The notes: generated by a model from the sequence alone, not told the origin. A stretch of 64,000 nucleotides of DNA from Candidatus Caldarchaeales archaeon (GCA_039630085.1 JBCNVM010000001.1:30768-94767), one strand, 5' to 3'; counted from the stretch's first letter, positions 1,090 to 21,659 are shown. Program-made: numbers and translations.

Positions 1090-2532
1090 TCACGAGTGCC
1101 TCCTCAGGTACCTCTCGATCAGGAACTTACTCTTCAGGGACTCCTCGGACATCCTCCTCACCTTCCCGTAGATCCTCGACTCGGCGAAGGGCCTGTCGAA
1201 GGCGCCGAAGCACCAGCTTATCCCAAGGTAGCTGTTCGGGTCGACGCCGTCGAGCGCGTACCTGTCGTTGAGGTAGACGGCGTACTCGAACGCGGTCCTG
1301 GGGTCCTCGGTCCACTCGATCAGCCTCTTGCACCAGTACATCCGCATGTAGTTGTGGATCTTCCCGGTCCTCAGGAGCTCCCTCTGGGCCGCGTTCCAGT
1401 ACCTGTCGTGAGTCTGGGCTCTCTCCAGCTCCTCGAGACTGTAAACGTGCTCGCGCCTGTCTGAGGCGTGCTCCTCGAGCGTCCCCCTCGCCCAAGCGGG
1501 GAGGCCCTCGAACTTCCCGAAATCGGGGTTGTGGACCGCCGCGTTCCTAGCGAGCTCCCTCCAGACTACTAGCTCGTCGATAAGCCTGCTCACGTTGGCG
1601 TCGTCCGGACCGAAGGACTTCAGGGCCTCCCGGAGCACTTGGACCGGCGAGATCATCCCCCACCTGAGGTAAGGGCTGAGCTCCGACGTCGCGTCCGCGC
1701 CGGGGTCAGACCTCTTCTCCGCGTAGAACTTCAGCCTTTCCCGCACGAAGACGTCGAGCCGCCGCAGAGCTTCGTCCTCGCCGCCGACGTAGTAGTCGAC
1801 CGGAGGGACGGTCACGTCAATGTCCAGCCCGTTAAGGTAGCCCTCGACCGAGTCCTCGTCCCAGCTCGCGACGTCCATATCCAGAGAGGGCACCTTGATC
1901 TCTAGCTGGGGGACATCCTCTAGGAAGCTCTGGAGGTTCTTCAAGATCTTCGGCCTTATGGTCCTCGCGTAAGGCTCGGCCTTCGTGGACGCGACTCCGA
2001 CCGGGACTACGACATCTCCCTCGACCATCGCGACCGGTGACTCGGCCCCCTCGACCGCTTCCCTCAGGAACCTCCTCTGGTGCGGGAGGTAGGGCGAATC
2101 CAGCACGACCATGCACGACTCCTCGATCAGGGGGACGAAGTCGGAGTTCCTCCTGACCACCAGCTTGATCCCCCTTCGGGCGAGGGAGCTCCTGAGCTTG
2201 ATCATCCCCTCGAGCATGAACCTGAACCTCCTCAGGTTGGGGTGGGGCTTCCTCTCGATCAGCGGGAACACGACCAGCAGGGGCCTCCGGAGCCCATTGG
2301 CTGCGTAGACCGCGTACTCCAGCGCGTAGTTGTGAACAGACCTGTGGGAGGCGTACATCAGGTACGTCACGAACTCGCCCCGTGCCCCTCCTTCACCCGG
2401 CTTGAGCGAGTGGACCCGCTCCGGCCTGATGAAGCTCGGAGGAGGCAGCACGCGAGTCACTCGGAGCCTCCGCAATAAATCCACGACTCGTGCGCTGAGC
2501 TTGAATTCGGCGGAATAGAACGCAGAGCGCAT
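1090..2532 (-). CDS. phr: deoxyribodipyrimidine (CPD) photolyase, class II
   Basis: 480 aa. The C-terminal block YWNAAQRELLRTGKIHNYMRMYWCKRLIEW...SYLGISWCFG and the N-terminal alpha/beta domain are typical of class II photolyases. Confidence 0.9.
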   Translation of the reverse strand: MRSAFYSAEFKLSARVVDLLRRLRVTRVLPPPSFIRPERVHSLKPGEGGARGEFVTYLMYASHRSVHNYALEYAVYAANGLRRPLLVVFPLIERKPHPNLRRFRFMLEGMIKLRSSLARRGIKLVVRRNSDFVPLIEESCMVVLDSPYLPHQRRFLREAVEGAESPVAMVEGDVVVPVGVASTKAEPYARTIRPKILKNLQSFLEDVPQLEIKVPSLDMDVASWDEDSVEGYLNGLDIDVTVPPVDYYVGGEDEALRRLDVFVRERLKFYAEKRSDPGADATSELSPYLRWGMISPVQVLREALKSFGPDDANVSRLIDELVVWRELARNAAVHNPDFGKFEGLPAWARGTLEEHASDRREHVYSLEELERAQTHDRYWNAAQRELLRTGKIHNYMRMYWCKRLIEWTEDPRTAFEYAVYLNDRYALDGVDPNSYLGISWCFGAFDRPFAESRIYGKVRRMSEESLKSKFLIERYLRRHS

Positions 2533-2712
2533 GACTTCCTTAAGAGGAAAATTGTTAGTTTTTGCTATTCGTCGGTTCTGAGCACAACACTTTTGATTGA
2601 ATAATTATGACTGGTCAGGTACAAATCATGTATGACGTGAACGTAGAACTCCTTCGGACTTTTGTTGTCAACGAGTCTTGCCAATAATTATCACTGAGGA
2701 ATAGCGATACCA

Positions 2713-3543
2713 TTATACGATATAAGCAAGCTCGCCGCTTTTGAACTTCTTCCTTATCAGTTCTTTATCACAGATGTTCGAAATCACCTCACCAACTGAG
2801 TTATAAAGATTATAAGTCGTCATTAGCTGAACAAACCTAAAGCGAGATCTTACCGCGTTTAACACATCGTTGGAAAATGGTGAGTCCCTTTCACGAGGTG
2901 GGTGCGACCTAAAGTGGTTAACCATCAGTATGGGTACAAGATTATCCTCACCTGTTTCGTCTAACTTTCTAAGGTAATGATCTACAACCTGTCTAAGATC
3001 ACGTATGTTTGCCCATCTTTCCAACCCTTTCACTTCAATTATTGCAAAATAGTCCCCATCTCTGACTTCGAGATCGTGGATACCTTCTATTTCTGTAGGT
3101 TCAACTTTAAAACCTAAAAAATCTAGAGTGAAAGCTACAGCATCAACAAGTTCATAACCACTGGATGTTAAAAGAAGTTCGAATTTTTCATAGATTTCGA
3201 GCTCGCGATTTAACTTCTTTATTTGATCTTCTAAATTCTTCTTTTGTGGAAAAGAGTATTCTGATATCCACGTTGGTCTTGTAGATTTTTTAGAAAGATT
3301 TTCAACCATATACGCTGGTGCTACCAGTTTAAGTTTTCTTCGTTGATCAAAAACTACTTTTAGCCTAGATTCATTTATTAGATGATTTACATAACGAAGT
3401 ACCTCATTACGTGTCATATCGCCCTTCAAGTTCTCGTGGATCATTGGTATAGTACAAAATTTTTTATATTTATCAATGTATTCTTCTATAATATTATAAA
3501 TTTTATCAGCCTTCTGCGGGTCTATTTCTTTGCGTTTTGGCAT
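2713..3543 (-). CDS. wHTH / coiled-coil / Mrr-like restriction-endonuclease-fold (PD-(D/E)xK) protein
   Basis: 276 aa. N-terminal winged-helix-like segment (TRNEVLRYVNHLINESRLKVV). Heptad-like middle (LEDQIKKLNRELEIYEKFE). C-terminal YELVDAVAFTLDFLGFKV..GIHDLEV..YFAIIEVKG resembles the Mrr_cat D...ExK core. Confidence 0.6.
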   Translation of the reverse strand: MPKRKEIDPQKADKIYNIIEEYIDKYKKFCTIPMIHENLKGDMTRNEVLRYVNHLINESRLKVVFDQRRKLKLVAPAYMVENLSKKSTRPTWISEYSFPQKKNLEDQIKKLNRELEIYEKFELLLTSSGYELVDAVAFTLDFLGFKVEPTEIEGIHDLEVRDGDYFAIIEVKGLERWANIRDLRQVVDHYLRKLDETGEDNLVPILMVNHFRSHPPRERDSPFSNDVLNAVRSRFRFVQLMTTYNLYNSVGEVISNICDKELIRKKFKSGELAYIV

Positions 3544-3573
3544 GGCTATTGTTCAACTTTAATTTTCCTTTGA

Positions 3574-3861
3574 TTACTTTGGGTTTTTTTTCGCGATTAG
3601 TTTCCTTCCTCGTCTTGCCCTAGTTAATGCTACATTTACAGTATTGTTGGTAGTCCCTAATATTTTCGCTATCTCCTTAGGTGTTAGCCCCAATCGAGAG
3701 AGGAGTTCGATTTTCTCTTGTTGATTGAACTCCATAGGAAGAGAAATAGCTAGCAAACTTATGATTGTATTTAATCTAATTGTTAGTTCTTGGAATTCGA
3801 CCTTGAGCATCTCAGTTAATTCAATTGATTTCGTGACCTTTTCCACCTTCATCGAGCTCAC
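3574..3861 (-). CDS. small HTH DNA-binding protein (island gene)
   Basis: 95 aa; C-terminal HTH LSRLGLTPKEIAKILGTTNNTVNVALTRARR followed by a basic tail; AT-rich codon usage. Confidence 0.55.
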   Translation of the reverse strand: MSSMKVEKVTKSIELTEMLKVEFQELTIRLNTIISLLAISLPMEFNQQEKIELLSRLGLTPKEIAKILGTTNNTVNVALTRARRGRKLIAKKNPK

Positions 3862-4261
3862 CCTTTAGACTGAAGTTATCTCTAAGTGAGTATTCCTTCA
3901 TCTTAAGCTTTTGTGTTTTTCGGTTCTTCTTTAAATTTGAGATGTTAATACCTAACTCCTCTAATTTAAATAATGACCTCTCTTTACGTCCCTCACTTAT
4001 CGCTAATCGGTTCTCCACAAATTTTTTCACCCATCCCGTCACAGTGCGCCTTGGAATGCCAGTCATTTTAGAGATTTCAAGGTCTGAACGGTTACCGTCA
4101 AGATTGTTGTAAACTACGGCTTTTTCATAAGTGTCAATCACCTTCTTGGCGTTGTCGGAAACGATTGAAGCTGCAATTATGCGAGTATATACTAGTAACT
4201 GATTGAGAGCTTCCTCTATTCTCTTCTCGGAATTTTTCCCCTGTTTGTCCGATCTCTTCAT
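3821..4261 (-). CDS. HTH DNA-binding protein (island gene; transposase/resolvase-type HTH)
   Basis: 146 aa; HTH SDLEISKMTGIPRRTVTGWVKKF. Its layout (N-terminal helix then HTH) parallels the 95-aa neighbour. It overlaps the next gene by 41 nt. Confidence 0.55.
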   Translation of the reverse strand: MKRSDKQGKNSEKRIEEALNQLLVYTRIIAASIVSDNAKKVIDTYEKAVVYNNLDGNRSDLEISKMTGIPRRTVTGWVKKFVENRLAISEGRKERSLFKLEELGINISNLKKNRKTQKLKMKEYSLRDNFSLKGELDEGGKGHEIN

Positions 4262-4378
4262 GCTCTTTCGTTACTTGATATTTCTCACTTTCAACGTTTT
4301 TGTTGACCAATTGATTAGAGCCCGCATTTACAATACATCAAAGACACTAAAATCATAGAGGGCATCTACGATATAGTT

Positions 4379-4406
4379 GTGCAATTTTATCTTTAAATAA
4401 TTGCAC
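4379..4406. repeat. perfect 8-bp inverted repeat GTGCAATT-N12-AATTGCAC upstream of the island cassette
   Basis: Read directly: 4379-4386 gtgcaatt and 4399-4406 aattgcac. It lies ~120 nt upstream of the start at 4261. Confidence 0.6.
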
Positions 4407-4596
4407 TAACACATTGAGATATAGTCGATTTTTCATTACAAACAGTATTTGGCCATTAGATATCAAAAGTATTTGGTCGAATAAAGTTGATATGTATCTG
4501 CCGTCCGCGTTCCGTGTCTTAATTAAGTCTCTATGCGAGGTCTTAGGTTTCATTAACTACCTCACTTCCCGTTTGGACACCAATTAAAACGTGGCA

Positions 4597-4671
4597 TGCC
4601 CCGGCCGGGATTTGAACCCGGGTCTCGGGCTCGAGAGGCCCGCATACTTGACCGGGCTATACTACCGGGGC
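4597..4671 (-). tRNA. tRNA-Glu(CUC)
   Basis: Minus-strand read: GCCCCGG-TA-GTAT..GTAT-G-CGGGC-CTCTCGA-GCCCG-AGAC-CCGGG-TTCAAAT-CCCGG-CCGGGGC-A. 75 nt; CCA not encoded. Confidence 0.9.
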
Positions 4672-4832: not shown

Positions 4833-5996
4833 TCACCCGGCCCTGATCTCGACGACGTCGCCGTCGGAGAGGACGTGGTCCGGACCGACCCTCTGGCCTT
4901 GGACCTTGACCGACCTTCCCCAGACCCTCGCGTACCTGAAGCCCCTCGCGAGGTCCTTGTGGATCAGCTCCGCCAGCTCGATGACCGTCGCGCCCTCGGG
5001 CAGTAGGATCGGCCTGTTCGAGACGACTCCGTCCTTCTGGGTGTAGACTCTGACCAGCGTCAGCGCGCCGAAGACCGCCTCCTTAAGCTCCTCGATCGAG
5101 CGGGGGTCTTTCACGGAGGTGGACACAACCCTCAGTCCCGTGCGGTCCTCCAGCTCCTCGGAGAGCTCTCTGGCCCTCGCGGCGCCGACGAGGTCGGACC
5201 TGTTGAGGGCGACCAGGGCCCTCCTGTAGACCGGCTGGACGATCACCTGCTCCTCGATCTCGTCGAGGGTCGCCTCCCCGATCACCTTCACGACCGCTGA
5301 GCTGTAGCCGTAGGACCTCAGGAGCTCGACGACCTCATCGGCCCTGCAGTGGATCTTCCCCAGAACGACCAGCCTTATCCCGCCGCCGTCGGTCCTCTGT
5401 ACCTTGACGTCGCACCTAGGCCTCCTCAGGGAGATCCCGTGGTCCTCGAGGAGGGACCTGACCGCCTCGAGCTGCGCGAACGGGTCCGAGGCCGCGTCGA
5501 CGACGATCAGGATCAGGTCGCTGTTCCTCGCCACCGAGACGGACCTCCTCGCGAAGGCGGTGGGCCGGAGGTCTTCGGTGAGGACCGGAGGCAGGTCGAC
5601 CACTTGGACCTCCGCGTCCCTGATCAGCGCCATTCCGGGGTAGGGCCTAGTGGTGGTGAGCGGGTAATCGGCGACCGGAGACTTCGCGTTGGTGAGGGCG
5701 TTGAGGAGCGAGGACTTCCCGGAGTTCGCGGGGCCGATGAGCGCCACCTGCGCCCACCCCTCCTTCTCGACGGAGAACTCGTCCCTTCCCCCGGACCTCC
5801 TCGACCTCCTCTCCTCGAGCTCGGACCTGAGTTCCGCAAGCCTCTTTCTTAGCTGCCTCCTCAGCTTCTCCGTGCCCTTGTGGTCCGGTATCAGGCCGAT
5901 CGCCTCCTCGAGCCTCGCGATCTTCTCCTCGATCGTCCTGGCCGAGGAGTACTCCGCGAGCTTCGCCCTCGCCTCCGCCGGGAGGTTCGTGGGCAT
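4833..5996 (-). CDS. DRG/Obg-family GTP-binding protein with a C-terminal TGS domain
   Basis: 387 aa; P-loop GPANSGKSS; G-domain followed by a TGS-like C-terminus (VRVYTQKDG...GDVVEI). Confidence 0.85.
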   Translation of the reverse strand: MPTNLPAEARAKLAEYSSARTIEEKIARLEEAIGLIPDHKGTEKLRRQLRKRLAELRSELEERRSRRSGGRDEFSVEKEGWAQVALIGPANSGKSSLLNALTNAKSPVADYPLTTTRPYPGMALIRDAEVQVVDLPPVLTEDLRPTAFARRSVSVARNSDLILIVVDAASDPFAQLEAVRSLLEDHGISLRRPRCDVKVQRTDGGGIRLVVLGKIHCRADEVVELLRSYGYSSAVVKVIGEATLDEIEEQVIVQPVYRRALVALNRSDLVGAARARELSEELEDRTGLRVVSTSVKDPRSIEELKEAVFGALTLVRVYTQKDGVVSNRPILLPEGATVIELAELIHKDLARGFRYARVWGRSVKVQGQRVGPDHVLSDGDVVEIRAG

Positions 5997-21448: not shown

Positions 21449-21571
21449 CTCCTTTCGTGCTGCTTCGCTGGGGCTCAACTTAAAGACCTTGCCGCACGGG
21501 GGACGCCCGAGCGGCGGCGACCCGAAGCATCGGGAACGCCGGAGGACGGAGGGAAACGGTGGTTTGCGGCG

Positions 21572-21659
21572 CGGGCCCGCCGGGACTCGAACCCGGGACC
21601 TTCGGCTTTCCCCGGCCAGATAGAAGGCCGACGCTCTGTCCTGGCTGAGCTACGGGCCC
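21572..21659 (-). tRNA. tRNA-Arg(UCU) with a ~13-nt canonical (37/38) intron
   Basis: Minus-strand read: GGGCCCG-TA-GCTC..AGAGC-G-TCGGC-CTTCTA[TCTGGCCGGGGAA]A-GCCGA-AGGTC-CCGGG-TTCGAGT-CCCGG-CGGGCCC-G. 88 nt. Confidence 0.85.

Follow-up and report, generated by a model that had tools for sequence, protein, structure and literature searches.

Analysis of a 64,000 nt stretch of DNA from Candidatus Caldarchaeales archaeon (GCA_039630085.1 JBCNVM010000001.1:30768-94767; the whole stretch is from now on referred to as the window) revealed a cassette of three genes on the minus strand of a low-GC island: two genes for small helix-turn-helix (HTH) proteins followed by a gene for a putative nuclease. 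The first open reading frame (ORF) encodes a protein of 146 aa (3821–4261, the type A partner), the second a protein of 95 aa (3574–3861, the type B partner, with a GTG start and an ATG three codons in) and the third a protein of 276 aa (2713–3543, the effector nuclease). The ORFs of the 146 aa and 95 aa proteins overlap by 41 nt and the gap between the 95 aa and 276 aa ORFs is 30 nt, and this tight packing suggests that the three are transcribed as a single operon. The same set of co-directional, overlapping or closely spaced genes filling the island had been described in a first-pass annotation made from the sequence alone, and since each of the three has conserved homologues elsewhere they are considered real genes and not chance ORFs. 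A 66 aa ORF at 4353–4553 had no family match and was rejected as a gene.

The N-terminal part of the effector, residues 9–86 (3286–3519, minus strand), forms a winged helix in the full-length AlphaFold model (predicted local distance difference test, pLDDT, 82), with the secondary structure elements in the order helix-helix-helix-strand-strand. When the family profile was aligned with PDB the N-terminus fell together with the winged helices of LexA, AraR, Z-alpha and MarR, and Foldseek showed similarity to those of MarR, Fur and ScpA. In the AlphaFold2 (AF2) model the winged helix is followed by a central helix of 28 residues (99–126; 3166–3249, minus strand) with heptad-spaced hydrophobic residues, preceded by an invariant tryptophan (W92) and closed by an FE.LL motif; W92, E122, L124 and L125 are conserved across 36 short forms of the family. 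The helix is presumed to be a dimerisation coiled coil. A winged-helix-like N-terminus and a heptad-repeat middle were features already proposed for this protein in the first-pass annotation, and the former agrees with the model, the profile and the Foldseek matches, the latter with the model.

The C-terminal part, residues 129–270 (2734–3159, minus strand), is predicted to be a restriction-endonuclease-fold domain of the PD-(D/E)xK type with its catalytic triad intact. A model of the C-terminal 157 residues, built with AF2 from an alignment of 56 sequences, reached a pLDDT of 96.5 and displays the alpha-beta-beta-beta-alpha-beta topology of the PD-(D/E)xK core. The top Foldseek matches in PDB are all PD-(D/E)xK nucleases (probability up to 1.00, TMq up to 0.59), as are most of the 50 PDB matches listed; among them are AF1548 (1Y88), N.BspD6I, FokI (TMq 0.59), Hjc, EndoMS/NucS, HindIII, Cdn1, Hna, LmuA and McrC, with XisH also found among the structural matches, and the best viral matches, in BFVD, carry the name 'Restriction endonuclease' (TMq 0.58–0.63). 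Reading the catalytic codons from the sequence places D157 (3073–3075, minus strand) at the beginning of strand 2 and E170 (3034–3036) and K172 (3028–3030), separated by a valine, within strand 3. All three residues are invariant among close relatives, and the aspartate and glutamate are at least 90% conserved in sets of 36 to 56 relatives. The C-terminal motifs quoted in the first-pass annotation are present in the 276 aa protein, and its proposal of a nuclease fold carrying the D, E and K residues is upheld by the AF2 model and the Foldseek comparison, from which we infer that the effector acts as a nuclease.

Searches with the effector returned no match in Pfam, NCBIfam, PADLOC or PDB sequences, and in PHROGs only two weak sub-threshold matches, both to families of unknown function; the family profile found only winged helices and a spurious Pcc1 match among PDB sequences. 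Neither Mrr_cat (PF04471), tested down to E ≤ 1 and so well below its gathering score, nor Mrr_N, in spite of the winged helix being present, matched the window protein. When 56 relatives were scanned singly, Mrr_cat was the commonest weak Pfam match (12 of the 56, best E-value 3.3e-4), followed by NOV_C and NERD. Judged by these scores the nuclease domain is remotely related to the Mrr-type clade, at a sub-threshold level, and a non-member by the Pfam threshold, so that the Mrr-type core seen in the first-pass annotation stands as far as the nearest Pfam family of the relatives is concerned, but not for the window protein itself.

The same annotation had compared the domain order with that of Mrr-like type IV (modification-dependent) restriction enzymes and pointed out that a methyltransferase is missing. 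Both statements agree with our analysis: the winged helix precedes the restriction endonuclease (REase) domain, as in Mrr and AF1548, which likewise have no methyltransferase, and neither the island nor any of the related loci contained a methyltransferase ORF or Pfam match. The locus is accordingly without the cognate methyltransferase by which a type II restriction-modification system with a controller (C) protein would be recognised. One possibility is that the effector acts alone as a type IV enzyme, of the Mrr or winged-helix-fusion kind: a modified base would be recognised by the winged helix and the DNA cut close to it by the nuclease, the HTH proteins being regulators of the surrounding element. 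The domain order, the missing methyltransferase, the position of Mrr_cat as nearest Pfam family among the relatives and of AF1548 as the best PDB match would all fit, and winged-helix fusion endonucleases (DpnI, FcyTI and Psp4BI) are proven type IV enzymes dependent on N6-methyladenine (PMC11037411). Like the effector, these are fusions of a single winged helix and a PD-(D/E)xK domain, and methyltransferase genes are rarely found near them (PMC11037411). They are, however, built in the opposite order, PD-(D/E)xK followed by winged helix, and have no HTH partner genes, and the PDB matches of the effector family profile included no DpnI-type winged helix. The effector also differs from Mrr itself in lacking a match to Mrr_cat or Mrr_N, in the coiled-coil helix between its domains and in being tied to arrays of small HTH genes. 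With the tight and widespread coupling to between one and six HTH paralogues and to a HEPN effector (see below), which is foreign to known type IV enzymes, a solitary type IV enzyme seems rather unlikely.

A word-indexed protein search identified two and then eight relatives, the first two being 52% and 45% identical to the window effector, while an exhaustive profile search gave 1695 family representatives at E ≤ 1e-3 (clustered at 50% identity) in archaea and bacteria; where the source gives them a name it is 'hypothetical protein'. Four loci were obtained from a metagenome scan with a five-sequence alignment, and a tblastn search of a haloarchaeal-type member against plasmids gave no match. 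The family falls into forms of different length. The short forms (~270 aa) share the winged helix, whereas in forms of ~400 aa only linker, coiled coil and nuclease domain are common to the family and the N-terminal domains are unrelated and unannotated, and forms of ~570–600 aa are built like the latter with a C-terminal extension beyond the nuclease domain. In P0013, P0014, P0100, P0106 and similar proteins the winged helix is replaced by large N-terminal domains without any Pfam or PADLOC match, and these domains could be the sensors of single-gene defence proteins. The longer forms are solitary genes, seen in four contexts: amid phage genes in a Pantoea phage-plasmid, on a Synechocystis plasmid, in an archaeon beside a ribbon-helix-helix (RHH)-PIN pair between housekeeping genes, and in Aliarcobacter among mostly unannotated genes including those of an HNH nuclease and a KAP NTPase. 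In PADLOC nine further family members gave no match, and one of the longer relatives, P0039, gave a weak, stray HicA-like match (E 0.011) in its N-terminal extension, the sole match to a toxin-antitoxin or abortive infection model.

The two small partners of the effector both start with an amphipathic helix followed by an HTH, the layout that the first-pass annotation had noticed for the pair. In the 95 aa protein the HTH resembles region 4 of sigma-70 and matches Sigma70_r4_2 at 6.1e-8, above the gathering score. The 146 aa protein has a winged HTH (DG..S..EI....TV..W) and a C-terminal SL.ELGI motif; in Pfam it reaches HTH_23, HTH_28 and HTH_29 below threshold only, and the profile of its family (alignment A7, 21 members from nine loci) finds MarR/Lrp/ArsR-type winged helices in PDB. 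The type A HTHs also show a weak resemblance to the N-terminal HTHs of transposases. The 146 aa protein is 51% identical (E 4e-42) to the gene product next to the nuclease homologue in locus L001, and the 95 aa protein matches its counterpart in L002 at E 2e-11, with type B homologues adjoining the nuclease gene also in L003, L005, L006 and L081. On this evidence types A and B are taken to be two distinct HTH families, both unannotated.

To describe the neighbourhood of the nuclease homologues (N), every ORF of the related loci was searched with the type A and type B profiles. The simplest arrangements are A, N in L001 and L079 and B, N in L002. L006 has the order A, A, B, N, and in L075 a single A is separated by a strand change from A, A, A, N. 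L003/4 and L005 share the order A-like, B, A followed, after a strand change, by A, N, A, the A-like gene being weak and not detected in L003/4. The largest cluster, L081, reads B, A, A, B, B, N, A and then a gene for a protein with HTH and HEPN domains, with two more small B-like ORFs flanking N (judged by eye and not by profile), and L082/83 reads N, A, HEPN protein, A, A, A. Although L079, L081 and L082 were excluded from profile building, their neighbours still score between E 1e-10 and 1e-24. Neighbouring genes in the clusters commonly overlap by 8–20 nt. Genes of type A and/or B thus directly flank or overlap N in nine loci besides the window, about ten independent cases, and HTH genes were found beside the nuclease homologue in every locus with flanking sequence, in line with the co-occurrence expected from the first-pass annotation. 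The number of HTH partners varies between one and six across the two families, and the window cassette, with one A, one B and N, is a minimal form of this recurrent module.

Two ORFs in these loci were noted in addition. Directly downstream of the nuclease homologue in L002, the ORF at 1107–1502 carries a PD-(D/E)xK-like motif (PDIIVH ... VIEVKK); it is without a match in Pfam or PHROGs and may encode a second, unrelated nuclease. Beside the haloarchaeal-type cluster of L003 a gene on the minus strand (2623–3708) encodes an acidic protein of 361 aa without family match, whose C-terminal third looks by eye like a nucleotide-binding or TIR-like alpha/beta domain.

The HTH-HEPN proteins of L081 (5335–6123, 262 aa) and L082 (6838–7659, 273 aa) consist of an N-terminal HTH and a Swt1-like HEPN domain with the R-x4-H motif; they match HEPN_Swt1 at 4e-9 and one another at 5e-12. 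Their presence in the same clusters suggests a version of the module with two effectors. The linkage of the nuclease gene with the two HTH families, and with HEPN as a second effector, is conserved. Interchange of HEPN and Mrr-type REase effectors is regarded as a hallmark of abortive infection (Abi) and other defence systems (PMC3710099). The cassette resembles type II toxin-antitoxin (TA) and Abi systems in this interchange or co-presence of HEPN and REase effectors, in its occurrence on mobile elements and in its layout, small DNA-binding genes being placed upstream of the nuclease gene and translationally coupled to it; a small DNA-binding gene upstream of, and overlapping or abutting, the nuclease gene was found in the window and the nine loci. 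It departs from TA and Abi systems in having one to six HTH genes from two families and an effector with a DNA-binding domain of its own. Relationship with CoCoNuT/McrBC systems was considered and rejected, as no McrB/C-type GTPase or tandem nuclease genes were present in any locus.

A tyrosine integrase gene adjoins the cluster of L081, which lies within an archaeal chromosome. Together with Hjc and XisH among the structural matches and the weak transposase-like character of the type A HTHs, this could mean that the nuclease serves the element itself in recombination, excision or replication, in the manner of Hjc, XisH or TnsA, with the HTH proteins as its regulators. The Hjc matches are, however, weaker than those to FokI and Mrr-like proteins, the longer relatives are solitary chromosomal or plasmid genes without a surrounding element, and co-occurrence with a HEPN RNase is hard to reconcile with a role in replication. 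As the island also lacks terminal repeats and target duplication, we consider such a housekeeping function quite unlikely, and a transposon, to which the transposase-like HTH matches had pointed, was set aside on the latter ground.

The cassette lies in an island of 2064 bp (2533–4596, by GC profile) situated between the photolyase gene (1090–2532) and the 3' end of a tRNA-Glu(CTC) gene (4597–4671, minus strand; ARAGORN, Rfam tRNA 62.8 bits), with a gene for a Drg-like GTPase (4833–5996) on the far side of the tRNA. The island has ~36% GC compared with ~63% elsewhere (0.33–0.43 along the GC profile) and is the sole low-GC stretch in the window; L001, the locus holding the closest cassette relative elsewhere, is likewise low in GC (33%). 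Foreign composition and closeness to a tRNA gene, both put forward in the first-pass annotation, are therefore confirmed by the GC profile and by ARAGORN and Rfam. Related genomes were retrieved by means of the Drg-like GTPase gene, which placed the host, an archaeon from a hot spring, in Calditenuaceae (Caldarchaeales) with its nearest relative at 93% protein and ~87% DNA identity. The order GTPase, tRNA-Glu, slot X, photolyase is kept in these genomes and only slot X varies. In L012 (9321–10110) and L053 the slot is occupied by an intact short-chain dehydrogenase (SDR) gene and in the closest relative, L009 (9422–10075), by a shortened and decayed copy of it, while no SDR remnant was found in the island. 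The alignment to L009 ends exactly at the 3' end of the tRNA-Glu (window 4597), which is the right-hand breakpoint of the island, and restarts near 2490.

Since sister genomes hold an SDR gene in the same slot, the island is considered a recent import, and the import at this tRNA hotspot cost the host an SDR gene. The 3' ends of tRNA genes are classic integration points. ORF calling identified no integrase in the island, and a repeat search for attachment (att) repeats, a second copy of the tRNA end, terminal inverted repeats or a target duplication was negative, which leaves the island short of the integrase and the att repeats copying the tRNA 3' end that define an integrative element. As an integrase occurs beside the homologous cluster in L081, the island is taken for a stranded piece of an integrative element whose point of entry was the tRNA. 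The fragment might also be an inert relic, left behind after the rest of the element was deleted and unexpressed or non-functional in a host of 63% GC, for which the missing integrase and att site, the strongly foreign composition and the loss of the neighbouring SDR gene could be quoted; the three frames are, however, intact and of full length compared with their homologues and the catalytic residues are kept, which makes a relic highly improbable. The abrupt change in GC on a metagenome-assembled contig further raises the question of an assembly chimera, with low-GC DNA from another organism mis-joined into the metagenome-assembled genome. Synteny with three related genomes continues on both flanks, with gene order and orientation unchanged, one breakpoint lies exactly at the tRNA 3' end, and a chimera would normally end a contig and not sit inside conserved synteny, so that this explanation is considered extremely improbable.

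Some further observations concern the surroundings. The slot beside tRNA-Glu, in which the SDR gene is intact, decayed or replaced depending on the genome, looks like a hotspot of gene turnover. The first ~13 codons of the photolyase ORF (window 2493–2532) have no counterpart in the alignment with the closest relative, and the region upstream of the ORF is now part of the island. The insertion may have supplied the photolyase gene with a new start and promoter. Elsewhere in the window (21571–21659, minus strand) ARAGORN reported a tRNA with an anticodon of four bases, to which it assigned no identity; this may be an intron-containing archaeal tRNA.

Upstream of the operon there is an AT-rich non-coding leader of 335 bp (4262–4596, minus strand), for which no Rfam family and no unusual RNA folding (z = 0.05) was detected. 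When analysing this leader a perfect palindrome, GTGCAATT-N12-AATTGCAC, was identified at 4379–4406 around a TATA-like TTTAAA, 131 nt upstream of the first ATG of the operon, and near it a direct repeat, AGTATTTGG, with 24 nt spacing (4443–4476). The palindrome is a candidate promoter and operator, and it and the AGTATTTGG repeat might both serve the HTH proteins as operators.

Among the structural matches, the type IIS cleavage domains of FokI and N.BspD6I gave the nuclease domain of the effector its highest TM-scores (0.55–0.59), despite an identity of only 13–15%. As in FokI, a winged-helix-type recognition module is joined to a separate cleavage domain, which in FokI is non-specific. The FokI cleavage domain works as a dimer, and for nuclease domains of its kind dimerisation is needed to cut both strands. 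FokI has three recognition subdomains in one chain and a companion methyltransferase, whereas in the cassette the additional HTHs are separate proteins and there is no methyltransferase.

Taken together, we interpret the cassette as a conflict module of a mobile element in which a dimerising DNA endonuclease is controlled by dedicated HTH partners, an interpretation to which we give a probability of roughly 0.55. According to this the island would be a fragment of an archaeal integrative element without its integrase, which inserted at the tRNA-Glu 3' end in place of the SDR gene. The effector would bind DNA by its winged helix, pair by its coiled-coil helix and cut DNA with its Mrr/FokI-like PD-(D/E)xK domain. 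The type A and type B proteins, made from the same translationally coupled operon, would restrain the nuclease, either by repressing the operon or by stoichiometric binding of the effector via their N-terminal helices, as an antitoxin or adaptor might do, or by both. Dimerisation and the mode of control are in this scheme presumed. In this way the module would protect or stabilise the element or its host, either through destruction of competing DNA or through post-segregational killing of cells from which it has been lost. A role in defence or addiction is suggested, and the proposal in the first-pass annotation of a candidate defence or toxin-regulator system finds support as an interpretation, the role itself being presumed.

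Several results speak against this interpretation. PADLOC-DB 2.0 contains no match for the effector or the type A protein and only a stray HTH match for the type B protein, so that the PADLOC search suggested in the first-pass annotation returned no defence system for the cassette. The lysine of the ExK motif is replaced in about one quarter of the distant short forms. No confirmed relatives of the effector were recovered from IMG/VR, searched with two alignments, or from the species-genome collection, searched with the nuclease alignment. Most of the contexts are short contigs and the census is small (~10 loci), and since the mobile elements of archaea often contain small HTH genes, part of the linkage could reflect a shared element backbone and not function.

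A bolder variant is that the HTH paralogues are more than repressors, namely exchangeable DNA-recognition subunits which dock their shared N-terminal helices onto the coiled coil of the effector, giving a modular multi-subunit nuclease directed by sequence. We regard this as speculative and very unlikely; if true, it would amount to FokI split into parts, with the HTH-HEPN protein as an alternative effector, and to a class of defence or exclusion system not recognised before, disseminated by the mobile elements of archaea.

To our knowledge few defence or addiction systems have been described in archaea, most of the known ones being carried over from bacterial models. The combination of a winged helix, a coiled coil and a REase domain with HTH arrays from two families, with or without an HTH-HEPN protein, was not found described in the libraries and literature searched. 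The 2014 'dark matter' survey lists PD-(D/E)xK arCOGs linked to plasmid-like elements, and these might include the cassette family. What has been described here is a recurrent multi-component gene set, built around an effector family of 1695 representatives that is unnamed in curated libraries. Should the cassette be a regulated nuclease system as proposed, it would represent a new architecture among the conflict systems of mobile elements and a source, in thermophilic lineages, of a compact dimerising cleavage domain. The variable arrays of HTH paralogues further raise the question whether the specificity or control of the nuclease is split among separate small proteins.

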